From the NCBI RefSeq assembly GCF_046119375.1, contig NW_027362761.1, positions 980,902,001 through 980,966,000 on the forward strand: a stretch of DNA of 64,000 nt, given 5' to 3'. Below the pieces are notes generated by a model. The model did no database searches and was not told the origin of the DNA. It was given only the letters and a program-made list of their open reading frames with translations. Origin of the DNA: Phyllobates terribilis. Taxonomy: Eukaryota. Positions 4,438 through 53,674 of this stretch are shown here, piece after piece (position 1 is the stretch's first letter; each line of letters begins with the position of its first letter). The position numbers and the translations under genes are program-made.

Positions 4438-5194
4438 ACACATTTCATGGGGATGCTTCTTTAAAGGGATTGACCAAGATTATAAAGAAAATGAATCTCT
4501 CATTTTTGTAGAAACACCACCACTCCTTTCCATGTGTGTCTGTGTCTGTCCAGTATTACAAAAGCATCAACTAAAGTGAATTGGGGTGAGCGGCAACATC
4601 AGGCAATGCCTTTCTTATTTCAGACAACAACAGGGAGATTGACACATGGAAATCAGTTGTTACAAAATTAACATTAAATATTAAAGGGAAAATAAATCCT
4701 TTCCCTGTAATGAGGATTAAAAAGAAGCTTTAATCCTCGTATTAAAGGATTTTTTTTGTAAGAGAATCAAGATGCCCTGTCTCTCTCTCTCATAATTGAC
4801 TTGAACTGGGAAAAACTGCAGTTTGCCAAGTCATATGCAGGAAGTGAATTATGCCTGTATATTTTTATTTTCCATTTTAAGGGGATCTACTTCATAAGGA
4901 ATAAATATTAAGACGACTGATCTGATGCAGAGGAAGATGCCGTCTGCTGCATCAGTACTTATAGCTAATAAATATGGGTAAATCAGAGATAAAGGAGTCT
5001 GTGTGGGGGATTAGTGCTAAGAATATGAGGTTACAAGACCAGCCATATGTTAAGCCCCAAAGCCGAGCAACCTGTCCTTGTCCAAAGTAGACCATGATCC
5101 AGCTGAGTTTAGGATTGGGCCTCTCAATGCTCAGCCATCTTTTTTTACTTATTGTTAACCCCTTAGTAACAAAGTCCAATTTTTCAAAATTTAC

Positions 5195-6570
5195 ATAAGA
5201 TAATAATAAGATAATAAGATATACTTTATTTATCCCGGAGGAAATTGCGGTATCACAGCAGCAGAACACAGATCTCGAACATGACACATATAATAACATA
5301 ACATTTGGAATGCTTTAGACATTGCTTTTCAGACATTTGTTAAACACCCCCATAGCTGTTGGAACAAACGATCTCCTGTATTTTTCCTTTTTACACCTTC
5401 GTTGTATTAGGCGATTGCTGAATGTGCTCTTCTGTTTCGCAAACAGTTCATAAAGCGGGTGTGTGTTGTTGCCCATTATAGCTCTGCACTTCTTCTTAAT
5501 CCTATCCTCTACCACCTCTTCAAAAGTCCCAAGCTGTAGGCCCACCGTCGCGCTAGCCTTCTTTATAAGTTTGTTGAGCTTGTTGGCGTCAGCAACACGC
5601 ACACTGTTACCCCAGCAAATTATTGCCGCAAAGGTGGCACTAGCCACAATGGATTGGTAGAACACCTCAAGCATTTTGCCACACACATTAAAAGACCTTA
5701 ACTTCCTTAGGAAGTACAATCTACTCATCCCCTTCTTGTAGACCTTCTCCATGTGGCACTTCCAGTCTAGCTTGCTATCCAGGTAAACCCCCAAATATTT
5801 GAAACTGTCCACCATCTCCACATCCTGACCATCAATGGTAACAGGTAGGCATACCTTCTTGCACCTTCCATAGCTCATCACCAACTCCCTGGTTTTCTTA
5901 ACATTTAGTTCTAGATGGTTAGCCTGGCACCATACTACAAAGTCCGCAACCACCCTTCTATATTCCTCTTCATCCTGGTCCTTCCCAATACCGCCAACTA
6001 TCACAGAGTCATCCGAGTACTTCTGGAGGTGACAACGGTCTGATTTATACTGAAAGTCAGCTGTGTACAATGTAAAGAGGAATGGCGACAGCACTGTTCC
6101 CTGCGGGGCTCCGACACTGCTCAGTACACTATCTGATGTAGCCGTCCCCCACCTAACAAACTGTGGCCTATCCGACAGGTAGTCAATTATCCAATTCACA
6201 AGTCCCTCATCCACCGCCATTTTAATCAACTTTCCACGCAGTAAGAGTGGCTGTAATGTGTTGAACGCACTAGAGAAATCAAAGAACAAAGCACGCATTG
6301 TGGTTCCATCATTGTCCAAAAAGGAATGTACTGTTTGTAGCAGAGACGCTACAGCATCGTCCACCCCCAGTCCCTGCCGGTACGCAAACTGAAGAGCATC
6401 AGTATGCACCATCACCCTCGGACACAAGTGAGCAAGTACTATTCTCTCCAAGGACTTCATCGCATGCGATGTTAAGGCCACCGGTCTATAGTCCCCCGGG
6501 GAAGCCGGGAAGGTAGTCTTGGGAACCGGCACCAGGCAGGAAGTCTTCCATAGCACTGGTACTCTCTTTC
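5195..6570 (-). mobile_element. 5'-truncated Rex1/Babar-clade LINE with open RT/C-terminal frame
   Basis: ERVPVLWKTSCLVPVPK, DYRPVALTSHAMKSLER, FFDFSSAFNT, GAPQGTVLSPFLF, LQKYSDDS, FKYLGV; ORF 5315-6556 has no stops; short-repeat (TATCTTAT-type) 3' tail at ~5195-5222. Confidence 0.9.
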
Positions 6571-6868
6571 CTATTGTTTACTTACTTCAGTATCATTATT
6601 CAAAAGTCCTTTTGTTAGGACGTTGGAGTTAAAAGTCAATTTTTCAAGGAAATATAAAAAAAAAATGTTTTTTTTTGTTGTTTTTTTTTAAAGGTCCAAT
6701 TCAGTTTTGAAGTGACTTTGAGGGGCCTATATATTGCAAAACCTCAAAGTGATACAATTAAAAACAAAACAAAACTGCACCCCGTAAATTATTTAAACCG
6801 GTCAGGAAATTTGTACCCTTAGAGGAATTAACAGAAAGTGGAATAAAAATTAGGAATTAATCCTAATA

Positions 6869-9800
6869 TTTCCAGGAGACCATCATGACCGCGCGACAGG
6901 AGGTTGTCCTTCTCATGCTCTAGGGAAAGGTAACACACGAGAGGTTAAAAGCCTCCCCCCTGCATCACACCCTCAGTGTCTTACCAAATCACCACACCAG
7001 GATGGATGAATTTTATTTTATTGAATTGTCTCACACCAATTCAGGGAAGGAATGTAATAGTGCTGTCATGATGGACTCCTGGAAATATAATTACCGGTAG
7101 GACCAATTCCTAGTTTCACCAGGACATGACAGCACGACAGGAGAAATACCAAATCAATGGAATATTTATGGCGTGACTACTGCCTGAAGGACTTTCCTTC
7201 CGTAGGCTAAATGTTGAGCTGATGAAATGTCCAGCTTATAATGTCTACAGAAAGTGGTTATATTGGCCCATGTTGCAGCCCTACAAATTTGGTCCACAGA
7301 GGCCCCCTGCCCTTTCAGCCAAGGAGGTAGAAATTGCTCTTGTAGAATGTACCTTGATATCAAGCGGAGGCTCTTTCCCTTCCAACTTGTATGCCATGGA
7401 AATGATTGAGGTAATCCATCTGGCTGAAGTCACTCTTGAAGTCACTCTTGCTTCTGTTTTTACCCGAATGCTGAATGAAAAGATTTGAGTCATGTCTCCA
7501 TGGTTTTGTGACTTCCGCGCAACACATTACTGACCTTCTGACATCAAGTGTATGGAATAGTCTTTTTCGTTTTTCGGGTGCTGACAAAAAGATGGCAATA
7601 TGATTTTGTGGTTCAAGTTTTTCATGGACATTACATTCGGGAAGAAGGATGGGTCAAGTTTGAAGACTGTCCGGTCAACCAGAATATGCAAATAAGGGTC
7701 TGTTGTTGATAGTGCCTGAATCTCTCCTACTCACTTTGCTGATGTTACTGCTACCAGAAATGCTGTCTTCATGGAGAATAATTTTATACTGGTTTCCTCC
7801 TGAGGTTCAAAAGGAGTTTACATAAGGCACCTAGTATCAGGTTTAGGTCCCATGGTGGTACTAATTTTCAGATTGTAGGTCTCAACCTAGTAACTGATTT
7901 TGCAAACCTTGCCATCCAGGGATGGTCTGCCAGTGGGTAATCTAAAAAGGCACTAAGAGTCGAGATCTGTACTCTAAGTGTGCTTGGTCTCAAGCCCTTT
8001 TCAAACCCTAGCTGAAGGAACTCTAGAATCTTTGGAATGTCGGGCTGGGAAGAGATTCCTAAGGATTCTCCAACATGACAGCAGTATTTCTTCCATATCT
8101 TGGAGTAGATGGCGGAAGTGGCTGGTTTTCTACTAGCCTGTATGATGGTTATTACCCTATCCGATAGACCCTTAGAACTTAGAATCTGCCTCTCAGGACC
8201 CACGCTGTCAGACATAAGAAGTGTATATCCTGATGTATTAGAGGGCCCTGTGATAGAAGGTCATGTCTCTCCGGCAGGGAACACGGATCTTCTAGGGCTA
8301 TGTGATTTAACAGAGGGAACCAGCTTCTTTTGGGCCATCAAGAGGCTACTAGAATTACTGTGGCACAGTCTTCCTGGATCTTTTCTTAGGACCTTGGAAA
8401 AACCTTTTCACTTTCGTATTCCTGTGGGTGGCAAAGAGATTTAGTGACGGGACGCCCCAGCGGTGGATAAGATTGTGAAATACCTCCGGATTCAACTCCC
8501 ATTCGGATGACCAAACCATTTCCCTGCTGAGGAAGTTCGCCACTATGTTCTCTGATCCCTTGAGGTGAACCGAGGTTATGGAGATAAGTCTTCTCTGCCC
8601 ACTGGAATATCTACCCAGACAGATTCTGTAGAAGCTGCCCTCTTGGGCCTCTTTGGTGCCAAATAAACGAGACAGTCGTTATATTGTCCGAAAAAAATCT
8701 TCACATGTTTTCCTCTGAGGACGTGCTGGTATTGCTGAAGCACTTCACATACCGCTCTTAATTCCCTGTAGTTTGATGATTTCCTGCTCTCTTCTGGGGA
8801 CCAAGTACCCTGAATGTACTGACGTTCTACCTCTGCTCCCCAACCTAGTTGGCTAGCATCTGTGGTAATTCTTATACACGGGGATGGAGTTCATTGTATT
8901 CCTCTTTGGAGATTTCTTGGAGATGTCCACCATGACAGGGAGGACTTTAGACTTGCGGAAATCTTCATTTCTTTGTCTAGTCCAGAATGGTTGCTTGTTC
9001 CAGTTTAGCAGGACTGTCTGCTGCAGTTCTCTGGAGTGCGTCTGACCCCATCGTACACTTAGGAAGCATGATTTTATAAGCCATAAGATTCTCATGGTGT
9101 ACCTTACGGACGCTGTTCTTTTCTTTTTGAACAAGCAAATTCTGCTGCTTATATCATTTCTTTTGTCAATCGTGAGGGAGGACATTCAACGATGTGAATA
9201 TAGGAGGACTCCCAAGAACACCTTCTGCATCTCTGGCTACAGTTTGGACTTTTCCCATTTTATACAACATTCTAGGTTTTTTAGCGTATGGATGGTCTGG
9301 ACAAGATGCTAATTGAGAAGCGATACTGAATCTGCCGCCAGAAGGAGATAGTCCACATATGGTACGATGATTATGCCTTCCTGAATGCCGCTGCTACCTC
9401 CATCATTAGCTTTGTGAAGAAATGAGGTGCCGAGGATAGGCCAAGTGGCAGGCATTGGAACTGGAAGTGGTAGATTCTTCCCTGGTATTTTAGTGCAAAT
9501 CTTAGAAATGAATGGCAGGCGGGATGGAAGGACACATGGTAATATGCGTCTCTTAAGTCCACCATACACATTACTGAATTCTTTTTTTAATGGAACAATT
9601 ATTTTTATAGTTTCCATCTTGAATTTTTTGTATTTTATGCTCTGGTTTAAAGGTCTTAGAGTTATGATCGTGCCGTAATTCCCTGAGGGTTTTTTTTTTA
9701 GAGAGAAAAAAGTGAAGCGCAAGGTCCTTGCCCTCTCTCTAAAGGTTGTACTGGCCTGACCATGCCGGATTTCAACAGATCTGACGCGCCCCCCCTTACC

Positions 9801-12800
9801 CAGAGTCTTTTTAAGGCAGTAGGAGTCGGAGCGATGGTAAGCCGATACCTTTGAGGTGGGATGCAGGCAAATTCAGGCAAATTCGATCCTGTAGCCTTAT
9901 TTCATGGTTTGCAAAATCCATGGATTTTCCGTGATGGACTGCCAACCCGTGTGAAAAAAACCGAAGTCTCCCCCCGATTTCTCTGGCGTTAGGGTCTTCC
10001 TGATGGGCCTGTAGCGAATCGGTGGTCCTGCCCTTACCTCCTTTGGGATAACTCCACCTCCCAGATTCACCTTTTCCTTTGTAATCCTGGCTTTGCGATG
10101 GTCGGGGCCTACGAAAGGACTGATATTTTTTAGTTTTCTCCTCAGGGAATGCCTTTTTTCATCTGAAGCACTTTCCAGGATCTTATCCAAGACCCGCCCA
10201 AAGACATTGGCTCCTGAAAACGGGATTGCACAAAGCTTATTTTTGGAATGGCAGTCCCCCGACCAGGTTTTCAGCCAGATGGCTAGAACGAATGTCTTGT
10301 CTCGGGAAGGCAAGCTGAGAACCTTACAGAGTCTGCTGATGGATCTGCCATAAACTAGGTTGCAGATTTTAGCATAGGAAGGGAATCTAGGATGACCTCT
10401 CGGGAAGTATTAGATTTTATTTGTGATGATAACTCATTGATTCAAAAAGGGACATGGACCTGGCTACCGAAGTTGCGACTATATAAGATTTAATAAGAGC
10501 AGCCGAGGCCTCCCAGCTTCTCCTTAGGAGCCCATGAGCATTTCTATCCATGGCGTCGCAGAGGCACAATGAATCCTCAAATGGTATTGAGGTCTTTCTT
10601 GCCACTCTGGCCATAGGAATGTCAATTTTAGGGACTTCTTCCCAAATCTTGTATTCCTCCGGGTTAAAAGGGAGATGGGCCTTGAAATCCCTAGGAACAA
10701 GTCGCTTCTCCGTACCCTCCCATTCTTCCAAAATCATGGACCTTATATGTTCGTTAACTGGGACACACTTTCTTTGGGTTCTTAGTCCCCCGAACATTTC
10801 ATCTTGTATGGTATGTGGTATTTGAGTATCCTCATAGTATTTCTGACTGCTCTTAATAACTTTGTATTCTCGGATGAGAAAAGATATTTCTTCCGGTCTT
10901 CGGAGGTGATATGGGGGCGATATTTCTCTCGCTTCTAGATCCTGTTCAGAATCATAAGAATATACTTCCTCCTCCAATAATTCATCCATCTCCCATCTGG
11001 CTCTCTTGTGACGGGATGTATCTTGAACAGTCTGGGGTGGCATAAGCCTGTAGACCGTGCTCTGGACCTCTTCCCAGATCATAGAAAGTATGTTTGCCTG
11101 GAATGTGGAATGTTCCTCTTTGAGGACTTTGGCTATACACTCTGCACATACAGTACAGACCAAAAGTTTGGACACACTTTCTCATTTAAAGATTTTTCTG
11201 TATTTTCATGACTATGAAAATTGTACATTCACACTGAAGGCATCAAAACTATGAATTAACACATGTGGAATTATATACTTAACAAAAAAGTGTGAAGCAA
11301 CTGAAAATATGTCTTATATTCTAGGTTCTTCAAAGTAGCCACCTTTTGCTTTGATGACTGCTTTGCACACTCTTGGCATTCTCTTGATGAGCTTCAAGAG
11401 GTAGTCACCGGAAATGGTTTTCACTTCACAGGTGTGCCCTGTCAGGTTTAATAAGTGGGATTTCTTGCCTTATAAATGGGATTGGGACCATCAGTTGTGT
11501 TGTGCAGAAGTCTGGTGGATACACAGCTGATAGTCCTACTGAATAGACTGTTAGAATTTGTATTATGGCAAGAAAAAAGCAGGTCAGTCAGTGCGAAAAA
11601 TTAGGAAAACTTTGAAAGTGTCCCCAAGTGCAGTTGCAAAAACCATCAAGCGCTACAAAGAAACTGGCTCACTTGAGGACCGCCCCAGGAAAGGAAGACC
11701 AAGAGTCACCTCTGCTTCAGAGGATAAGTTTATCCGAGTCACCAGCCTCAGAAATCGCAGGTTAACAGCAGCTCAGATTAGAGACCAGGTCAATGCCACA
11801 CAGAGTTCTAGCAGCAGACACATCTCTACAACAACTGTAAAGAGGAGACTTTGTGCAGCAGGCCTTCATGGTAAAATAGCTGCTAGGAAACCACTGGTAA
11901 GGACAGGCAACAAGCAGAAGAGACTTGTTTGGGCTAAAGAACTCAAGGAATGGACATTAGACCAGTGGAAATCTGTGCTTTGGTCTGACGAGTCCAACCA
12001 CCGTGTCTTTGCGACGCAGAAAAGGTGAACGGATGGACTCTACATGCCTGGTTCCCACCGTGAAGCATGGAGGAGGAGGTGTGATGGTGTGGGGGTGCTT
12101 TGCTGGTGACACTGTTGGTGATTTATTCAAAATTGAAGGCAAACTGAACGAGCATGGCTACCACAGCATCTTGCAGCGGCATGCTATTCCATGCGGTTTG
12201 CGTTTAGTTGGACCATCATTTATTTTTCAACAGGACAATGACCCCAAACACACCTCCAGGCTGTGTAAGGGCTATTTGACCAAGAAGGAGAGCGATGGGG
12301 TGCCACGCCAGATGACCTAGCCTCCACAGTCACCAGACCTGAACCCAATCGAGATGGTTTGGGGTGAGCTGGACCGCAGAGTGAAGGCAAAAGGGCCAAC
12401 AAGTGCCAAGCATCTCTGGGAACTCCTTCAAGATTGTTGGAAGACCATTTCCGGTGACTACCTCTTGAAGCTCATCAAGAGAATGCCAAGAGTGTGCAAA
12501 GCAGTCATCAAAGCAAAAGGTTGCTACTTTGAAGAACCTAGAATATAAGACATATTTTCAGTTGTTTCACACTTTTTTGTTAAGTATATAATTCCACATG
12601 TGTTAATTCATAGTTTTGATGCCTTCAGTGTGAATGTACAATTTTCATAGTCATGAAAATACAGAAAAATCTTTAAATGAGAAGGTGTGTCCAAACTTTT
12701 GGTCTGTATTGTAATTGTTTTTAATGTGCGTCAGGCAGCCTGGTATTACAGGTTAGGCATCTTCTCAACTTTTTACGGGTAGATGAACCCGATCCTAAGG

Positions 12801-22580: not shown

Positions 22581-22825
22581 GCAATTTTGGAGGGAGGTGC
22601 AGAGAGTAGAAAATAGAAATTCTGGCATTTCAATTATTTTCTCTTAACTGCGTTTACAGTGCGGGCTAATTTCATATTTTCAATATGCAAATTGCCTCTT
22701 CAGAGAAAAAGAGGCCTGGTACTCTATAGCGCCACCTATTGGAAGCAGCAATCCTACAAGTCACAATCAACCCTTTAACGAGTCATGCAATAAGACTTAG
22801 GATAAAAGCCAAATCAGAATCTCAA

Positions 22826-22870
22826 TTTGCAGACAGGGTGTTTCGGGCTGTTGGCCCTCGTCAGTGCAAA
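22826..22870 (-). ncRNA. Type I hammerhead ribozyme with intact core, in a satellite-2/retrozyme-like repeat monomer (~22680-22920)
   Basis: Minus strand: TTTGCA-CTGACGA-GGGC(CAACA)GCCC-GAAA-CA(CCC)TG-TC|TGCAAA. All core nucleotides are present, the cleavage triplet is GUC, and stem I extends by 6 + 12 bp. Confidence 0.88.
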
Positions 22871-24536
22871 GTATGAGATCTGATTTGGCTAGGTGAGAGG
22901 CTCTGGACTGAGGTCTATTTTCAATAGACTTTTAAAAGGGAACCTGATAGGCGATTCATGTGCCTAAATCATGGGCAGCATGCATCAGCCACTGGCTGTA
23001 CGATCAGAGCCATGTATGTTTGTCTCTGAAATGCTGCGGTATTTCAGAGAAAAGCATACTTTTACTAGCGCCGAGCTCTGCCTATGGCCACACTATCAGT
23101 ATTTTTTCTCAGGAGTGGGAGCCAAAACCAGGTGAGGAACAATCAGAGAAAAGGTATAATACAAACAAGTCACCAATTCTGCATTTATCACCCACTCCTG
23201 GTTTTGGCTCCCACACCTAAAACAAAAAATACTGATCGAATACTGACCAAACACTGATAGTGGGGCTGTGGCCTAAATATGCGTATAGGCAGAGGCTTGT
23301 CAGTTACTCTCAGTGGGCAGGGAGAAGCCGCCAGGAACATGCCTGTATGACTAGTGCACAGTGCCACTCAGTTCCAGGCAGCTATTAAAAGTATGTCTTT
23401 CTCTGAAACACCACAGTGTTTCAAAGTCAAACATACATGGCTGTGATCATACAGCCAGTGACTGATAAATGTTGCCCACGGTTTGAGCAGCATGCATCAC
23501 CTGTTAGGTTCCCTTTAAGCAAGGGCTGCATGTCAACTTTGGCAACGACATGTCACGAGGCCACTGCTACATCCCATCATGTTTCAATAGAGTCGCACGG
23601 CTACTATGGCGGTACTGCAACCGCAACAAGTACGCTGCAAAAAAATTGCTTGTAGCAGTATCCTCAGGTTTTTAAAAAATATATATTTATTTTTAATGGG
23701 AAAAAAGGACTTAGATATTTTCTTATATTTTAAAAACATTTTTTTACATTATTAGTCCCATTGATGGACTTGAACATGCGATCTTTTAATCGCTTGTTGT
23801 ATATACTACTATGCCTTAGTATGGCTCTATTTTGAGGCTGCCTGGCTTGTGATCCTGCTCCATACATGTGGACCTTCGCACAGTTGTGAAGTTACATCCG
23901 TACGTACCAAGGGGTTAAATACCGCAACGCTTAATTATCGCTGCAGTTTGGGATCACACCACAGGAGTGATTTGGACGTTCCGTTTTCCTTAGAGGCCAT
24001 TTACAAGGACTGACCCACAACATGATACGACTGCTGATTGGTAAAGTTTTACTGATTGGCAGTCCTTGGAACGTCTGTTTACACAGTCAGATCAAAGTAA
24101 ACGATGTGCACGGAGCGATCTATACTAGATTGCTCAGCGCACATAGGCTGCCATTGTTCTCGGCAGCATGAGTTCTGGTTTACACAGGATGATTCACCCC
24201 CTTTTATGCTGCATGAAACATAATTTCACCAGATGAATGAGCGTGTTGCTAGTCCATCAGGTTTACATGGAAAGATAATTGGGAAACGAGCGTTGCTAGA
24301 AACACTTATCTTGCAGTGTAAATGCCCCTTAACCCCAATTGATAGATAGGGGTGTCTCACGACTAAGATTTTACAGATGGTTAAATCTGGGCACTGCGCT
24401 CGGCCGTCATCATCCCTCCTCAGAGACATTGAATGGGTCAGCAGGGTGCAAGCTCAATCAGTCGCTCGGTTCAAATCTCCCTGCCTATGGTTTAGGTTGC
24501 AGGAGAGAACCAGGTACATAAGTTCCCCGCTCTGAC

Positions 24537-27688: not shown

Positions 27689-30241
27689 GGCTGTGCCCAC
27701 GATGCAGAAATGCTCAGGATTTTTTCCTGAGCGTTTCTGCATCTCCCTGTCAGAACAAAACACATGCGGATTGTACATGCGTTTTCCTGCCAGGGACATG
27801 TGGAAGTGAAGCGTTCTTCACATGCATTTCCGCATGCGGGTTGACAAGCCCTTTCCAAGCGATTTTAGCATCACTTGGAAAGTGCTTGTCAACTTGGTCA
27901 CACTATATAAATCCATGCAGACAGCATGGATTTATATACTGTGACCAAAAGAATGGTAAAAAAATAAATACATACAGTTATATGAAAAAGTTTGGGCACC
28001 CCTATTAATCTTAAGCTTAATGTTTTATAAAAATTGGTGTTTTTGCAACAGCTTTTTCAGTTTGATATATGTAATAACTGCTGGACACAGTAATGTTTCT
28101 GCCTTGAAATGAAGTTTATTGTACTAACAGAAAATGTGCAATCTGCATTCAAACAAAATTTGACAGGTGCATAAGTATGGGCACCTCACCAGAAAAGTGA
28201 CAGTAATATTTAGTAGATCCTCCTTTTGCAAAAATAACAGCCTCTAGTCGCTTCCTGTAGCTTTTAATGATTTCCTGGATCCTGGATGAAGGTATTTTTG
28301 ACCATTCCTCTTTACAAAACAATTCCAGTTCAGTTAAGTTTGATGGTCGCCGAGCATGGACAGCCCTCTTCAAATGATCCCACAGATATTCAATGATATT
28401 CAGGTCTGGGGACTGGGATGGCCATTCCAGAACATTGTAATGGTTCCTCTGCATGAATGCCTGAGTAGATTTGGAGCGGTGTTTTGGATCATTGTCTTGC
28501 TGAAAGATCCATCCCCTGCATAACTTCAACTTTGTCACTGATTCTTGAACATTATTGTCAAGAATCTGCTGATACTGAGTGGAATCCATGCGTCCCTCAA
28601 CTTTAACAAGATTCCCGGTGCCGGCATTGGCCACACAGCCCCAAAGCATGATGGAACCTCCACCAAATTTTACTGTGGGTAGCAAGTGTTTTTCTTGGAA
28701 TGCTGTGTTTTTTTGCCGCCATGCATAACGCCTTTTTGTATGACCAAACAACTCAATCTTGGTTTCATCAGTTCACAGGACCTTCTTCCAAAAAGAAATT
28801 GGCTTCTCCAAATGTGCTTTTGCATACCTCAGCCGACTCTGTTTGTGGAGTGCTTGCAGAAACGGCTTCTTTCGCATCACTCTCCCATACAGCTTCTCCT
28901 TGTGCAAAGTGCGTTGTATAGTTGACCGATGCACAGTGACACCATCTGCAGCAAGTTGATGCTGCAGCTCTCTGGAGGTGGTCTGAGGATTGTCCTTGAC
29001 TGATCTCACCATTCTTCTTCTCTGCCTTTCTGATGCTTTTCTTGGCCTGCAACTTCTGGCCTTAACAAGAACTGTCCCTGTGTTCTTCCATTTCCTTACT
29101 ATGTTCCTCACAGTGGAAACTGACAGGTTAAATCTCTGAGACAGCTTTTTGTATCCTTCCCCTGAACAACTATGTTGAATAATCTTTGTTTTCAGATCAT
29201 TTGACAGTTGTTTTGAGGAGCCCATGATGCCACTCTTCAGAGGAGATTCATACAGGAGAACAACTTGCAAGTGGCCACTTTAAGTAGCTTTTCTCATGAT
29301 TGCAAACGCCTGGCTATGAAGTTCAAAGCTCAATGAGGTTACAAAACCAAAAAAAGGGCTTTAGTAAGTCAGTAAAAAGTAGGTAGGAGTATTTAAACCA
29401 AGAAAATGATAAGGGTGCCCATACTTATGCACCTGTCAAATTTTGTTTGAATGCAGATTGCACATTTTCTGTTAGTACAATAAACCTCATTTCAAGGCAG
29501 AAACATTACTGTGTCCAACAGTTATTACATATATCAAACTGAAATAGCTGTTGCAAAAACACCAATTTTTATAAAACATTAAGCTTAAGATTAATAGGGG
29601 TGCCCAAACTTTTTCATATAACTGTATATACTTACCCTCTGATGGCCCACGGAGTCTTGCTTCCCTCCGTTCTCCCTTTCCGACAGCGGTACACTGAAGG
29701 ACCTGCCGACGTCAGCGTCGCGTGACCCATCACATGACTATGACGTCAGCGTCGCGTGACCCATCACATGACTATGACGTCAGCGTAGGTCCTTCAGTCC
29801 ATCGCTAGATGCCGGCATGAAAGGACGAGTGCAGCGGGGGCCACCAGAAGGTAAATATTTATTTTTTATTTTATTCTTTTTTTCACAGTTTTCTGTGGTA
29901 CCCGGATCCGGAGGAGAGTCTCCTCTCCTCTAGACCTGGGTACCATCCGCACATTGGAACGCGTGCATTCCGCAAGTCCTTATCTAGTGAAGCGGAATAC
30001 ATGCGTTCTAATGCAAGTCAATGGCGGCAAAAACGCAGCACTTCCGCAAAATAATTGCTAGTGCTGCGTTTTTTTCCGCAATGGTAATCTTCAGCGGAAA
30101 TTTCCACAGCATGTGCACAGTACATGCGGATTATCATTGGGGAACATGGCAGGCCTTCTACCATGCGTTTTTTTTAAGCGTTTCTGCAGTGTTTTTGCCG
30201 TTGCGGAAACGCTTAAAAAAACGCATCGTGGGCACACAGCC
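27689..30241 (+). mobile_element. Harbinger MITE family A, copy 3 (interrupted by a Tc1)
   Basis: TAA TSDs; the two halves join into a family A element once 27975-29624 and one TA are removed. Confidence 0.8.
27975..29624 (-). mobile_element. Young Tc1 transposon with near-intact DD34E transposase
   Basis: TA TSD; ~210-bp TIRs with 3 mismatches by eye; MGSSKQLSNDLK...KVL*TDETK...FQQDNDPKH...SPDLNIIE...AKGGSTKY in one frame. Confidence 0.95.
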
Positions 30242-35456: not shown

Positions 35457-38400
35457 TGTGAGGCAGTGACCGGGAGCGTATACAAGGGACGTTATATATC
35501 CCCCAGAATGTGTACAGAGACCTATTAAATTCATAGGAGTGCATTGCAGTCACAAACTCACCTGCGGCTGCAATGCAGGAATGAAGGCGAGCAATGACCT
35601 GGTCAGGCTATCTGGCTAAGGCAGATTAGTAAAACCCGGCAGGGCCTATATTTCTGGAGGAGGCTACAGGAAGGCAGTGAGGCAGCCTCCTCCCTCCAAC
35701 CCGGGTTTTCCAGTGGCTCTTGCCACAGGTCCTTTAAAAACCCTGCACTAAGTATTAGTGTTGTTCTATGTTGGAACCTGCTAGGAGCATAGCAGGAAAG
35801 CTCAGCAGGATTGAGTGTGGCTGAACCCACACCTGGGAAGGCTCTGCACCTGTCAGGCTCTGAGCAGCCCGGCACGGCCATTGCCCACGGCAACCGTTGT
35901 TTAAGGACTCGTGTTAACCCGGCTGCGAACTGGAGGACTTTTCTGTTACCCGTGAGTTTCTGAATAAAGCTGTTTATGTTGGACTTGCCTGGGTCACTGC
36001 CTCAGTTACTGCACGGTGTGAACACCACCGCCTTACAGCTTGTGGAGAATGCAGGCAGTGTGACTGAGGCATACCCCCACTGGCAGCTGCATGACCACAA
36101 TCCGGCCTGCCACCTTTCAGTTCCACCCCGTGGACAAAATGGACTGTTAAAGCAGCTGGTACTCACCCAGCAGCAGCAGCTGCAGTCTCAGCGGCAACAG
36201 CGGGAGCAGCAGCGTAATCAGCAGCAACAGCTACTGTACCAGCAGCAGCAAAAAAACAGACGAACTCTTGCTGCAACAGATTGCATCCCTGCGGGAGACA
36301 TCGACGGCATCAGCCCCGGAACGTCGAGAGGCCCGGGACAAGGTTCGCTTAGCGTTGAGGAAGATGAGACCGGAGGACGACGTGGAAGCCTTCCTGACCA
36401 TTTATGAGCGCACAGCGGAGCGGAAAAACCTACCGGCCGGCCAGTGGGCAGAAGTGGTGGTGCCGTTCCTGATCGGCGATGGCCAAAAGGCCTACTTCGA
36501 CCTCAGTCGGGAGGACGCCCAGGACTACCAGAGGCTCAAAGGTGAGTTCCTTGCCCGACTGGGGGTCAATACATACGCGAGGGCTCAGTGTGTATTTTCA
36601 TGGGCCTATGTGGAGACCCGACCCGCCCGGTCTCAGGCTTATGACCTCCGGCAGCTGGTAAAGAGGTGGCTCCAGCCTGAGACTTTGTCTCCAGCCCAGA
36701 TGGTGGAGAGGGTGGTGGTTGACCGGCTGGTGAGGACTCTGCCAGCCGCTATCCAACATTGGGTGGGGCAAGGGGACCCCGGCAGACTCGACTAGGTGGT
36801 CAGCCTGATCGAGCGCTTCTCGGCCACTCAGGACTTTATCTGGGACTCCGCCCCCTCGCGGCTGTCATGCCGATCCCTGCCAACCCAGGAACCGAGAAAG
36901 GGGGTCGCGTCCTTCTGCTGAGGACAGTCAGCACCGTGCCCGTGCTGATGGGGTACCCCGGAGTGAGAGTGGCAGGAGACCGGTTCCCTCCCAAACGGTC
37001 ATAAGACCTAACAGTATCTCCACCACTAGGTGCTGGCGGTGTCAGGTGCCGGGACATGTGGTTGCTAACTGCCCCATGACTACGGAACCCATGGACTGCG
37101 GGGATAACCGCCGGGTCTCAATGTATGCCCAGACCGTCTGCACGGCGAGCGCTGAACCCCGAGACAGTGAACTCCGACTGTGCCAGGTACTGGTTAATGG
37201 GTACTCCACGGAGGCCCTCCTAGATTCGGGGAGCCTAGTGACTTTGGTACATGGGTCGCTGGTGGCAGGAGACAACCCCAGTGGACGGACAGTCGGGGTT
37301 GTGTGTATCCATGGGGACCTCCGAGAGTACCCAACCGCGGAGGTAGTTTTGTCCACACCATGTGGAGACATAAAACATGTGGTGGTAAAAACTCTTCCCT
37401 ATGGGACTGTGTTGGGAAGAGACTTGCCCCTGTTCTTGACTCTGTGGAAAAACAAAATCCACTCTCCCCCGGTAAAATGTATTACAGGAACTGTACCCGA
37501 CGAACCCGAGTCAGGGGTACCTGCCGTGTGGGTGTCCAACCTAGGGACAGAGTGTGACCCCCGATAGGTTTCCCCTAGAGGTGCTGGCAGGAGAGGTCAA
37601 GGAGACCCCATCGATCCCCGAGCTGGAGGTGTCCCGGGGCACGTTTGGGACAGCTCAGCTACAGGATCCCACTCTGACTCGGGCGCGGGAAAGGGTGTTA
37701 GAGGTAAATGGCGTAGCTCAACAGCCCGGTGCAGATACTGTATTTCCATGCATGGTAGTCAACGGTGAGTTGCTCTATAAGGAAGACAAAATCGGGGACG
37801 AGGTCGTGGAACAGTTAGTGGTACCTCAGTCGTACCGTCGGGCAGTTCTGGAGTTGGCACACACACACCTGCTGGGTGGACACTAAGGGGTTAAAAAGAC
37901 GCAAGAGCGTATCTTGCAGCGGTTCTTTTGGCCGGGGATTTACGCGGAGGTCCAAAAGTACTGCGAATCCTGCCCCGAATGTCAGTTGACCACACCCACC
38001 GCAAGTTTCCGTAGCCCATTGGTACCCCTGCCAGTGATAGAGGTACCTTTTGAACGGATTACAATGGACTTGGTAGGGACCATTGTAAAATCCGCTCGTG
38101 GCCACCAACATATACTAGTGGTCGTCAACTATGCCACCCGGTACCCGGAGGCTATACCGCTATGTCACACCTCGACGAAACTGATTGCAAGAGAGCTGTT
38201 TGCCATGTTCTGTTGCCTTGGACTACCTAGGGAGATCAAGGGACCCCTTTTATGTCCAAGGTGACAAGGGAACTGAGCAAACTGGTAAAAATTAAACAAT
38301 TGCGCACCTCGGTGTACCACCCTCAAACCGACGGGCTAGTAGAGCGGTTCAATAAAACCCTCAAATCCATGTTAAAAAAGGTGGTTTCTAAGGACGGAAG

Positions 38401-40964
38401 GGATTGGGACATGTTACTACCCTATTTGATGTTCGCTGTCCGTGAGGTACCCCAGGCTTCCACAGGGTTCTCTCCCTTTGAGTTATTGTACTGCAGACAC
38501 CCTAGGGGTCTGTTGGACGTAGCCAAAGAGACGTGGGAACAAGAGCCGACTCCACATAGGAGTATAATTGAACATGTGGCTAGTATCCAGGACCGGATTG
38601 AGGCGGTCATGCCCATCGTGAAGGAACATCTGTTAGATGCCCAGGCAGCGCAGAGGCGCACATATAATAAAAGAGCCACGGTCAGGTCTTTTAACAAGGG
38701 CGATCGGGTGTTAGTACTGGTACCCACAGCAGAGAGTAAGCTCATGGCCAAGTGGCAAGGGCCATATGAGGTTCGAGAAAAGGTGGGGGAGGTGAATTAC
38801 CGGGTGTATCAGCCCGGAAGGAGGAAACCTGAGCAGCTTTACCATGTAAACCTGCTAAAACCTTGGAAAGATCGAGAGTGTTTAGTTACAGATGTCACTC
38901 CGGGCATATCGCCAGAGAGTTCTCTACCTTCAGCCAGGGATGCATCAGGGGGAGAGGTCAGGATAAGTGATGCTCTCACAAAACAGCAGCGACAGGAGGC
39001 TCGCTCGCTGGTGCAGCAGAATACCGACGTGTTCTCAGAGGTACCGGGTAGGACTACAGTTCTCCAACATGACATTGCCACCGAACCTGGGGTACGGGTG
39101 CGAATGAGACCGTACCGGGTACCCGAAGCCCGGAGGCATGCCATCATGGCTGAGGTAAAACAAATGCTCCAGTTAGGCGTCATCGAGGAATCACTGAGTG
39201 AGTGGGCTAGCCCCATCATACTGATTCCGAAAACAGACGGATCGTTGCGCTTCTGTAACGATTTCCAGAAATTAAATGAAGTATCGAAATTTGACTTATA
39301 TCCAATGCCCAGGGTGAATGAGCTCATTGAGAGACTGGGGCAGGCCCAGTACTTTACCACGCTCGATCTCACCAAGGGTTACTAGCAGGTACCTCTCACG
39401 AAATCGGCGAAGGAAAAGACCGCCTTCATAACTCCAGAGGGTCTGTATCACTATGTGGTCTTACCTTTTGGGTTACATGGGGCCCGGGCTACATTCCAGA
39501 GGTTGATGGACATAGTGCTCAAGCCTCATCAGAAGTACGCCTCAGCGTATCTAGATGATATCATCTTTAGCACCGACTGGCATACGCACCTATCCCAGGT
39601 ACAAGCGGTGCTGGATTCTCTCAGAGCCGCGGGGTTAATGGCAAGCCTAAAAAAATGTGCGATAGGGTTAGAGGAAGCCCGGTATTTGGGGTATGTGATT
39701 GGCCGAGGAGTTATCAAGCCCCAAATCAATAAAGTTGAGGCCATAAAAAACTGGCCTAAACCGTCAAGTACAAAGCAGGTGAGGGCGTTCCTTGGCATCC
39801 TTGGGTATTACCGCAGGTTTAAACCTAATTTTGTTGGGAGAATGGCGGCCCTGACCGATCTCTTGAAAGGAAAGAAATCGGTAGTGGTTCGGTGGAACCC
39901 TCAGGCAGAAGAAGCCTTTCAGTCCACGAAGTTGGTCCTGTGTGGACAGCTGGTCCTCATCAGCCCCAACTTCAAGGAAACCTTCATTGTACAGACAGAT
40001 GCCTCAGAGGTAGGCCTAGGGGCGGTATTGTCACAGAGTGAATGGTGAAGAGCACCCGGTCACCTACTTGAGTAGAAAACTTGTCCCGGCAGAGAAAAAC
40101 TATAGCGTGGTAAAGAAGGAATGTTTGGCTATTAAGTGGGCCTTGGAATCGCTACATTATTATTTATTCGGTCGTCAGTTAAGCTTGGTGATAGACCACT
40201 CACCCTTGGTATGGATGAGAAATGCCAAGGAGAGGAATGCGCGAGTCACCAGGTGGTTCCTATCACTGCAAAATTTCAGTTCTTCTGTAGAACATCGCCC
40301 TGGGAAGTTGCAGGCAAACGCGGATGCGGGCATCCTGTATGGTGACAAATGTTCAACCCCACAAGTTTGAACAGGGGGGGGGGGGGATATGTGAGGCAGT
40401 GATCGGGATCGTATACGAGGGACGTTATATATCCCCCAGAATGTGTACAGAGACCTATTAAATCCATTGGAGTGCATTGCAGTCACAAACTCACCTGCGG
40501 CTGCAATGCAGGAATGAAGGCGAGCAATGACCTGGTCAGGCTATCTGGCTAAGGCAGATTAGTAAAACCCGGCAGGGCCTATATTTCTGGAGGAGACTAC
40601 AGGAAGGCAGTGGGGTGGCCTCCTCCCTCCAACCCGGGTTTTCCAGTGGCTCTTGCCACAGGTCCTTTAAAAACCCTGCACTAAGGATTAGTGTTGTTCT
40701 ATGTTGGAACCTGCTAGGAGCATAGCAGGAAAGCTCAGCAGGATTGAGTGTGGCTGAACCCACGCCTGGGAAGGCTCTGCACCAGTCAGGCTCTGAGCGG
40801 CCCGGTGTGGCCGTTGCCCACGGCAACCGTTGTTTAAGGACTGGTGTTAACCGGGCTGCGAACTGGAGGACTTTTCTGTTACCCGTGAGTTGCTGAATAA
40901 AGCTGTTGGACTTGCCTGGGTCACTGCCTCAGTTACTGCACGGTGTGAACACCGCCGCCTTACA
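35457..40964 (+). mobile_element. Complete Gmr1-like Ty3/gypsy LTR retrotransposon (SCAN-gag; PR-INT-RT-RH)
   Basis: LTRs 35457-36037 and 40390-40964 (TG..CA); TSD ATAT; PBS 36040-36057; PPT 40369-40389; CWRCQVPGHVVANC knuckle, LLDSGS protease, HTHLLGGH..CESCPEC, PQTDGLVERFN, YLDDII, QTDASEVGLGAVL; several frameshifts and stops. Confidence 0.93.
36040..36057 (+). promoter_or_regulatory. Primer-binding site, tRNA-Ala-like
   Basis: TTGTGGAGAATGCAGGCA matches 16/18 with TGGTGGAGAATGCGGGCA, the complement of a vertebrate tRNA-Ala(AGC) 3' end as I recall it. Confidence 0.7.
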
Positions 40965-45399: not shown

Positions 45400-46030
45400 G
45401 GTGCCCAGCACCCAGGAGCGGCGTACGGGGCTGCAATCCCCGGCCAGCAGGGGCCACATGTCACCTACCTGTCCCTGGGGTCGATCCAGCTGGTCTGCCT
45501 GCTGGTGTGGTCGATGTAAAACACCTTCCCGTCGTAGTCTCTCGCTTCTTCCCAGCCATCCGGTAGAGGCAGCTGTCCATTCCCCTTCCTAGGCATGATC
45601 AGCCCCTGCGAACTCCTCCATAAGTACAAGAAGGGGCTGGAGAGGGGCAGCCGGGGCTTACACTGCACACAGCGAGGAAGCCCCTAGTGCAGCAGGGCTG
45701 CGAGCCCCCCAGCAGGCAGAAAACCCCCCGCTCCACTAGCCAGCATGTCTGGGGGGCTGCACTGGCAGCTCCCGGCCCGGAGATCGCACAAGCAGCAAGG
45801 AGCCGTCTGGATTAGGATCCGGGGAAGCCAATAACCTCGGCCTGTTCCCAGCCACAGGCTCATTAGCATGAGATTAGCATCCGTCTCATCTGCATGCACA
45901 TTCCACACTCCTGCATTCCTCAGCGCTAACCCCTTGTGCGCCGGCTTGCTGCAGCCGCGGCGGCCGCTACTGGGACTTGTACTCAGCAGGGCAGGGCTGC
46001 CGGCAGCCGGGAGGGAGCACATTCTGCAGG
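45400..46030 (-). promoter_or_regulatory. GC/CpG-rich promoter and 5' UTR of the WWC gene
   Basis: Locally high GC and CpG content that is not repeat-derived; CCAAT near 45826; MCAT motifs at 45899 and 45914. Confidence 0.65.
45469..45596 (-). CDS. WWC2: First coding exon of a WWC-family (KIBRA-like) protein, most like WWC2; encodes WW domain 1
   Basis: [42 protein letters not shown](R); ends at a phase-2 donor AG|GTAGGT (GT at 45468-67), as in WWC genes. The N-terminus resembles WWC2 (MPRRAGSGQLPLP) more than WWC1 or WWC3. Confidence 0.8.
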
Positions 46031-51610: not shown

Positions 51611-53674
51611 GTTATGTTTGCATAACTTTGTTGCCTTATGAAGGGCAGGGGGGGCCCCCCAAAATTTCTTGCACAGGGGCCCACTACAGTCTGTGTCCGC
51701 CCCTGAGGCAACTGTTAGGTGGATTCATAACTGGCTTAGTGATCGGACTCAAAGGGTGGTTGTAAATGGCTTCACATCCAGCTGGATGAATGTCTGAAGT
51801 GGGGTACCACAGGGCTCCGTCCTGGGACCTGTATTGTTCAACATCTTTATCAATGATTTAGATGAAGGAATTGAGGGTAAGCTGATTAAATTTGCTGATG
51901 ACACAAAGCTAGGAGGGATAGCTAATACTAGAGAAGAGAGAGAGAGGATTCAAAAAGACCTAAATAAACTGGAGCAGTGGGCAGCAACCAACAGAATGGT
52001 TTTTAACAAAGAAAAATGCAAAGTACTACATCTGGGCAATAAAAATGAAAAAAGCATATACAGAATGGGAGGAATAGAGCTAAGCAACAGTACATGTGAA
52101 AAAGACTTAGGTATACTAATAGATCATAGACTGAACATGAGTCAACAGTGTGATGCAGCAGCAAAAAAGGCAAATACAATTCTGGGATGTATTAACAGAA
52201 GCATACAGTCTAGATCACGTGAAGTCATTATCGGTCTTTACTCCTCTTTGGTCAGACCTCATCTGGAATACTGTGTACAGTTTTGGGCACCACATTTTAA
52301 AAAAGACATAGACAAACTGGAGCAAGTTCAGAGAAGAGCGACCAGAATGGTGACTGGTGTGAAAACCATGTCCTATGAGGAACGGTTGCAGGATTTGGGA
52401 ATGTTTAGCTTGCAAAAAAGAAGACTGAGAGGAGACTTAATAGCTGTCTACAAATATGTCAAGGGCTGTCACATTGTAGAAGGATCATCTTTATTCTCAT
52501 TTCCACAAGGAAAGACTAGAAGCAATGGGATGAAACTAAATGGGAGGAGACACAGATTAGATATTAGAAAAAACTTTTTGATAGTTAGGGTGATTAATGA
52601 GTGGAACAGGCTGCCACGAGAGGTGGTGAGTTCCCCTTCAATGGACGTCTTCAAACAGAGGCTGGACAGACATCTGTCTGAGATGATCTAGTGAATCCTG
52701 CTTTGAGCAGGGGGTTGGACCAGATGACCCAGGAGGTCCCTTCCAACTCTACCATTCTATGATTCTAAATGAACTGTTAAGCTCTATGGGCTGGACATAT
52801 CTCCTCAGGAATCTGCCTCCAGACATTATTTTAAATGGCAGGACGCTTTACCAGTGTGAGACATAACACAGAACAGCAGAACTGAGCTTTGTCTTCTTAC
52901 AAACACATTTGCTGCAGCTCTACAGCTCTGCTATATTGCAACACTGTCTGCCTGTGAGATGGAAGCTGAAGCCCTGAGTGGACACCTGCAGATGTGTTTA
53001 TTGTGTAGATAGCTATATAACAGACATAATGGCGCTATGATAATAAATAATAATAATAATAATCACACACAGCTCTGCTGTGAGATCAGAAGAGCAGCCT
53101 GTCAGCCATTACATGTCTCACACTGGTAACGCCTCTTTCATTTAAAATAAGCTCTGGAGACAGATTCTCAGGGAGATCAGTGTCCGGCCCTTAGTTCTGT
53201 ACAGCTCATTTACACATAAGAAAAATGTGTCTTTCTCTGGAATAAGACATCAGATCACTGATATCAAGGTATAATCTTATTCAGCTTCCTATGACCTACA
53301 TGCCCATATAGACTTAGGAAGGTTGATCCTACCGACCGATTCCCTTTAGCAGCCCAGATGTAGCACATTAGATGCCCACTGTTGGCTGCAGCGGTCACTT
53401 GCCGACCGCTTGTAAACAAAGACCTAGAGGAAAGCCAAGATATCAGCACGCGATTTGTGGAATGTAGAAGAGGTTTCTATCGTTTCTTTTTTTACTCTAA
53501 CATTTGCAGCTGTTTTAGAAGAAAAATAAAAAGTTTAAAAACTAATTTAACATTTTTGTAAGATTTTCTAAGTTAAGGGGAAATCAGAGTAAATTTTATT
53601 AAAACCTGGTACCCCAGTACTACAACACATACTTGTCCAGTACTGAAATTGTAATTGCGGCTATTAGTGTATAA

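Follow-up and report, generated by a model that had tools for sequence, protein, structure and literature searches.

A 5'-truncated retrozyme copy with an intact type I hammerhead motif in intron 1 of a WWC gene of Phyllobates terribilis

The 64-kb stretch of Phyllobates terribilis DNA analyzed here (the window) carries on its minus strand the coding part of WWC exon 1, which includes the WW domain (45469-45596) and is followed by a GT donor at 45468. Exons 2 and 3 lie outside the window at C1:980868809 and 980840575, exon 2 about 33 kb beyond the window start. These exon positions give an intron 1 of about 78.6 kb and place a hammerhead motif at 22890-22807 within it in sense orientation, as an earlier note on this DNA had stated; the predicted cut site is separated from the donor by 22.6 kb and from the acceptor by 56 kb. 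The host gene is putatively akin to human WWC2, and it might be a paralog. Six further frames, picked by eye from the window's translations (1953-2544, 5315-6577, 7868-11181, 11555-12028, 28149-29279, and 51798-52691), resemble Tc1-type transposases, LINE reverse transcriptases, and a DIRS-like element. An LTR retrotransposon at about 35600-40930 has two similar terminal repeats and fragmented protease, integrase, and reverse transcriptase frames. It also contains a weak hammerhead-like string at 39963, which we rejected as a candidate: its stem II has only 2 bp, and it recurs in another copy of the surrounding element.

Read on the minus strand, the motif in the WWC intron comprises a CUGANGA-type core (22864-22858), a 4-bp stem II (22857-22854 paired with 22848-22845), the GAAA element (22844-22841), a helix III with three pairs in the monomer (22841-22839 with 22835-22833), and C17 at 22832, the cut being predicted between 22832 and 22831. 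Sequence, a stem-constrained pattern, and structure agree in delimiting the core, stem-loop II, and short helix III to 22832-22864. The 5' strand of stem I (22865-22878) contributes five distal pairs, a 3-nt bulge (22873-22871), and six inner pairs, the last formed between 22870-22865 and 22831-22826, and beyond these a distal 12-bp helix, recovered both by folding and by an inverted-repeat search, joins a 5' arm at 22879-22890 to a 3' arm at 22818-22807; in the fold, the 3' strand of stem I, including that arm, spans 22807-22831. The earlier note had read a consensus hammerhead here, and indeed nothing is missing from the core, from stem II, or from the extended stem I. Its long pairing in stem I likewise stands, but its tally of 6 bp plus 12 bp counts A22879 twice; folding of a 141-nt stretch gives an extension of 17 pairs with one bulged U. 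The energy of this fold (-41.9 kcal/mol; z score of -4.6) is better than that of all 200 shuffles, mainly by virtue of the long stem I, and in the lowest-energy structure, the core pairs with the helix III strand and stems II and III are absent. The bare core pattern is found in the window at chance level (12 matches against 9.6 expected), and when the stems are required, 22864 is the only site in the window with a 4-bp stem II and a 6-bp stem I. None of the Rfam hammerhead families was matched by the motif, either at the gathering score or at E values up to 10. The placement of the core at a three-way junction with stem I open supports the type I assignment and the satellite 2/retrozyme architecture proposed in the note. 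On the basis of these features, we conclude that the minus-strand motif at 22890-22807 is a genuine type I hammerhead, for which cleavage itself is predicted.

The hammerhead is carried by a 230-bp insertion on the minus strand (22686-22915), which corresponds to positions about 100 to 331 of a 332-bp repeat unit and is hence truncated at its 5' end; the sequence that it has in common with other copies of the family runs from 22917 to 22679. It is bounded by identical, AT-rich 11-bp target-site duplications at 22916-22926 on the 5' side and 22675-22685 on the 3' side, and no pair among 3,000 random flank pairs shared at least 11 bp. Of 234 positions, 6 depart from the family majority in this copy. 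Four of its substitutions are rare in the family, and one of these falls within the ribozyme, so that there is no sign of protection, in a count too small for a test. Sequence comparison places an octamer motif at its 3' end, which we call family end A (22685-22692, minus strand). The SPH-like and PSE-like motifs that come after the octamer in tandem units are absent from the window copy, and none of the three motifs occurs within 385 nt upstream of it. The 230 bp also fall short of the two consecutive units with complete hammerheads by which an active retrozyme is recognized. The description of the element as a lone monomer does not hold, for it is about 70% of a unit of a dispersed family and shares the intron with an older, decayed copy. 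That older copy has a broken core; two more lie beyond exon 3, and an inverted pair lies further downstream (L131:7798-7965; L134:606-835 and 7386-7547; L142:3270-3606 and 4628-4858). Four of these five run in the direction of the gene, and the best-kept core belongs to the single antisense copy. At the 5' junction of the window copy (22908-22932), the host flank, the duplication, and the first letters of the element are predicted to fold into a perfect 7-bp hairpin, and a palindrome is likewise present at the 5' junction of another locus (L013). A miniature inverted-repeat element (22933-23516; arms 22935-22960/23491-23516 and 22961-23069/23381-23489) lies beside the retrozyme and has a second hairpin element nested within it at about 23087-23266.

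A search of the frog's own genome (10.57 Gb) returned 721 candidates, of which the 40 best scored are 96 to 98% identical and are distributed over 11 large contigs. The exact 33-place core pattern has 1,134 matches genome-wide, 581 forward and 553 reverse, with none in the control and no strand bias. The dispersed family postulated in the note is accordingly real, with over a thousand copies and with tandem arrays. An older subfamily, 79% identical to the young one over 333 columns, adds 714 core matches and 4,707 candidates. Units are 332 bp long in 19 of 22 young cases; a second type is about 319 bp. They are arranged head to tail, with about six units in the longest arrays; in one array (L085), four exact cores are spaced 332 bp apart, as in active retrozymes. 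The two unit types have GC contents of 45% and 43%, and their longest ATG frame is 95 aa. These properties are those by which non-LTR retrozymes are defined, namely, tandem units of 150 to 450 bp with a type I hammerhead in each, a GC content under 50%, and neither an LTR nor a long frame; dispersed insertions with duplications longer than 4 bp, a further hallmark of retrozymes, are also found. Judged by its sequence, the family belongs to the non-LTR retrozymes, which frogs are already known to carry: a recent preprint describes such elements in all seven amphibians sampled, with a mean unit of 316 bp (Li, Clavereau and Pollet 2026, 10.64898/2026.07.22.740005; hereafter the preprint). In sequencing runs that bear the labels of five organisms (A to E), contigs span the element or a whole unit, and related families are thus present in other species. 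Median divergence from the family majority is 3.0% over 88 pieces, a figure that leans young because the loci were picked by likeness to the window copy or by an intact core. Under the same bias, units differ by 4.4% within arrays (10 pairs) and by 6.1% between arrays (221 pairs). Variants shared privately within an array, which bear on whether a circle or a multimer served as the template, numbered 0, 2, 0, and 0 in four arrays.

For a structural alignment, we used 46 rows (45 of 63 extracted copies and the window copy), 6 of which lack an intact core. In this alignment, 93.5% of the stem cells are paired, and the covariation (0.146) exceeds that of shuffles (0.093) and was reached by none of 500. 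Double changes are seen in stem II (CG in 22, GC in 19) and in the stem I extension (UA in 20, CG in 19); the number of covarying pairs is not above that of the shuffles (86 of 500), and the changes amount to two or three events between the subfamilies. These compensatory changes indicate that the ribozyme has been kept by the lineage of the element. In both subfamilies, the helix III strand is self-complementary on either side of a single central letter, which makes the dimerization that the note had thought possibly necessary for a weak stem III a probable requirement. Such a dimer design has been described for amphibian hammerheads (PMC4209133; PMC7229834). The predicted intermolecular helix has an energy of -7.0 to -7.5 kcal/mol in 36 of the 39 other copies with an intact core, against -0.1 kcal/mol for the self-duplex of the window copy. 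The difference lies at 22836 (minus strand), in loop III, where the window copy has a C that breaks the dimer helix and favors a decoy fold; G is found there in 82% of young pieces, and C in only 3 of the 1,134 exact matches. In the predicted ensemble, the window copy has a helix III pairing probability of 0.0 and a stem II probability of 0.40, as against 0.83 or more for stem II in 17 of 20 other young copies. Its gap to the active monomer fold (3.5 kcal/mol) is within the range of other young copies (1.5 to 6.0), and many copies of the old subfamily are also low for stem II, so that these folding predictions discriminate poorly. Published activities of related hammerheads vary: axolotl monomers were 6% and 22% cut in an hour (PMC7229834), newt monomers whose helix I is extended by an internally looped stretch are reported to be able to cut (PMC6155905), and one of nine Xenopus dimers cut in vitro according to the preprint. 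An internally looped extension of helix I like that of the newt monomers is present in the window copy.

The boundaries of 54 insertions point to a mode of movement. Outward 3'-type ends fall into two windows of about 20 nt each in 62 of 66 cases, one just after the octamer (class 1; 47 of 66) and the other after the PSE-like motif at unit positions 95 to 109 (class 2; 15 of 66), and the older subfamily has the same two ends. The 5'-type ends, in contrast, lie outside these windows in 36 of 42 cases. An inverted head is seen in 12 of the 54 insertions, and a duplication of at least 7 bp (7 to 14 bp) is seen in 25, compared with 1.1% of 3,000 random pairs. The family thus shows 5' truncation, heads in inverted orientation, and two fixed ends with an optional tail between them, all of which are Penelope-type features. 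Penelope-like elements are described as showing truncation, partial tandems, inverted heads, and an optional tail (PMC8557442), and in the Anolis element, reverse transcription starts at two internal sites that bound the tail and uses AT-rich targets (PMC11167929). A search of 20 short loci and 40 ten-kb regions drawn from 4,370 GIY-YIG candidates revealed no autonomous Penelope partner with the repeat in common, and the involvement of a Penelope enzyme is accordingly deduced from the insertions. Two of the 40 regions (L178 and L188) hold family copies; the one at L178:5893-6324 is a young retrozyme with an inverted head, nested in a Penelope-like reading frame and flanked by its own duplication of about 13 bp. 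Separately, a Penelope-like family in three small contigs (L033, L036, and L038) has a tandem repeat of about 58 bp at its 3' side.

At the junction between tandem units, an exact octamer is followed 7 nt later by an SPH-like motif and, 82 nt after the octamer start, by a PSE-like motif. One class of U5 genes in this genome has the octamer in the same orientation, an adjacent SPH-like motif, and a PSE core 95 nt on; both upstream motifs are present in two of seven U5 loci. The U5 cluster at L193-L200 has two promoter types, one with the octamer at about -152 next to an SPH-like motif and the other with the octamer at about -212 without it. This octamer-SPH-PSE layout is that of snRNA promoters (PMC2235858). 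The U1, U2, and U5 loci that we inspected have their PSE core at -57 to -61, a spacing that predicts a transcription start for the family 50 to 54 nt upstream of the cut, i.e., at about 22885-22881 on the minus strand in window coordinates. The letters of these motifs are well kept between the subfamilies (19 of 20 in the SPH-like block, 16 of 17 in the octamer block, and 13 of 15 in the PSE-like block, against 79% overall). The motif order was reproduced in none of 20,000 shuffles, a significance that is overstated since the pattern was composed after the unit and the U5 promoter had been seen; the octamer alone occurred in 406 of 20,000. We propose that the tandem units are likely transcribed from an internal snRNA-type promoter, as is reported for newt satellite 2, with RNA polymerase II (PMC2220036). 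In the literature covered, the two fixed ends and an snRNA-type promoter are unreported for frog retrozymes: the text of the preprint has zero occurrences of promoter, octamer, snRNA, and tail, and in PMC7229834, the word promoter occurs only as T7. The supplements of the preprint may already contain this family.

Taken together, these observations suggest the following life cycle. Tandem units bearing the octamer, SPH-like, and PSE-like motifs would be transcribed from the snRNA-type promoter, with a start site some 50 nt before the cut. Neighboring hammerheads would then pair through their self-complementary helix III strands and excise a unit-length RNA that is subsequently circularized, a step modeled on the anatomy of the units and on the axolotl and newt data. 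A Penelope-like reverse transcriptase would prime on nicked AT-rich DNA and begin copying at one of the two fixed internal sites; here, the fixed ends, duplications, and inverted heads are observed, and the enzyme is inferred. Copying would usually end early, and in the case of the window copy, it appears to have halted after 230 bp, leaving a copy with neither a promoter nor a second ribozyme and thus presumably unable to make a circle or to move alone. Such a copy would be read only within the WWC pre-mRNA, and cleavage, 56 kb ahead of exon 2, may affect a small share of the transcripts. We are therefore confident, if short of certain, that the element is a 5'-truncated 332-bp retrozyme flanked by target-site duplications, which landed in WWC intron 1, likely by a Penelope-type mechanism, and is likely a weak or inactive passenger there. 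Two suggestions of the note fare poorly against this background. Release of a retrozyme-like RNA from this copy gains no support, given a single cut site in less than one unit, and neither does an action of the copy or its family on host introns, the copy being young, truncated, and promoter-less, with a rare loop change that removes the predicted dimer helix.

We consider it unlikely that the chance insertion still cuts the WWC pre-mRNA as a monomer, lowering or altering its output as a mild, unselected allele. The sense orientation, intact core, and extended stem I are all compatible with such cutting, as is the cleavage of extended newt hammerheads as monomers (PMC6155905), but the helix III and stem II probabilities in the predicted ensemble (0.0 and 0.40), the slowness of axolotl monomers (PMC7229834), and the eight of nine Xenopus dimers left uncut in the preprint argue against it. 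The 56 kb to be transcribed before exon 2 would allow time for cutting. At usual elongation rates, the polymerase takes 20 to 30 min to reach that exon, and over this interval, the axolotl monomer rates (6 to 22% per hour) would correspond to roughly 2 to 10% of WWC transcripts being cut.

That the 230 bp represent instead the terminal repeat of a curtailed autonomous Penelope-like element is very improbable. The fixed 3' ends, inverted heads, and 7- to 14-bp duplications would all fit such an origin, and the preprint notes a resemblance of Xenopus retrozymes to Penelope terminal repeats. However, in the arrays, the part present in the window copy is preceded upstream by another 332-bp unit, no likeness was found near 20 GIY-YIG hits, and only two of the 40 ten-kb regions, in a sample of the 4,370 candidates, hold copies, the examined one of which is nested in a Penelope frame. 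Domestication of the hammerhead as a conserved intronic regulator of WWC, in the manner of the amniote RECK and C10orf118 hammerheads, is a reading to which we give hardly any credence. Intronic hammerheads of that kind have been proposed to derive from those of retroelements (PMC6155905), and all copies that turned up in the gene's first introns (the window copy, that in L131, and two in L134) are in sense orientation. Against this, domesticated hammerheads are low in copy number, whereas the window copy is young, belongs to a family of over a thousand, and retains a perfect duplication; the ribozyme contains one of its four rare substitutions, the core of the older copy in this intron is broken, and the Rfam hammerhead models are not matched. 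The truncated, passenger retrozyme remains our preferred reading of the locus, and a perfect-looking intronic hammerhead is what chance insertion would be expected to produce in an amphibian-type genome.

At the level of the family, the data provide a testable model of retrozyme transcription, from an internal snRNA-type promoter, and of retrozyme copying, from two fixed start sites; the preprint names both processes as open questions. More tentatively, and with the balance of our judgment somewhat against it, the family might be the frog counterpart of newt satellite 2, self-transcribing and copied in Penelope fashion from two start sites that bracket the SPH and PSE motifs. If so, the tail between the two sites would be the promoter itself. 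Class 1 ends would then split the promoter, as in the window copy, and about a quarter of ends (15 of 66) could leave behind an snRNA promoter that faces outward into host DNA. A single mechanism would thereby connect satellite 2 with retrozymes and with the Penelope tail, and the genome would hold hundreds of sense-intronic ribozymes and orphan promoters as a natural test set. The young, near-identical copies that keep or lose the dimer helix are also suited to testing selection against sense-intronic hammerheads.

Among known systems, the conserved intronic hammerheads of amniotes (RECK and C10orf118/CTCL), for which Rfam has the names HH9 and HH10, share with the window copy the type I form and a sense position in a long intron. 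They differ in being few, conserved across species, and detached from any mobile family, whereas the window copy is a young one among over a thousand and matches no Rfam model. Penelope-like elements, including Poseidon PAc of Anolis, are alike in 5' truncation, partial tandems, inverted 5' copies, two internal start sites of reverse transcription, AT-rich targets, and a hammerhead in the repeat (PMC11167929; PMC8557442). In contrast to these elements, our family has no reverse transcriptase frame and bears the canonical rather than the minimal hammerhead form, and its two ends are about 100 nt apart rather than 30 to 40. The closest correspondence is with the animal non-LTR retrozymes described by Cervera and de la Pena (2020; PMC7229834) and in the preprint, which likewise consist of tandems of about 330 bp with one type I hammerhead per unit, have a GC content under 50% and a short self-complementary helix III, occur as dispersed monomers and in short arrays, and show duplications of more than 4 bp. 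Many copies are intronic in frogs as well, with 42 to 44% of Xenopus copies in introns and mild depletion reported in the preprint. The window copy differs in being shorter than one unit, and the two fixed insertion ends and the putative snRNA-type promoter of our family do not figure in the descriptions given in PMC7229834 and the preprint, so far as these sources were covered. Finally, newt and salamander satellite 2, together with axolotl Rtz331 and Rtz353, have a comparable unit of about 330 bp, a bulged extended stem I, and a dimer-type helix III; the likeness to satellite 2 is one of architecture. Helix III has two pairs beyond A15.1-U16.1 and a 3-nt loop here but one or two pairs and a tetraloop in axolotl (PMC7229834). 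The parallel with newt satellite 2 may extend to the snRNA-type promoter for RNA polymerase II (PMC2220036), of which the frog family has the motifs, arranged in a U5-like order.
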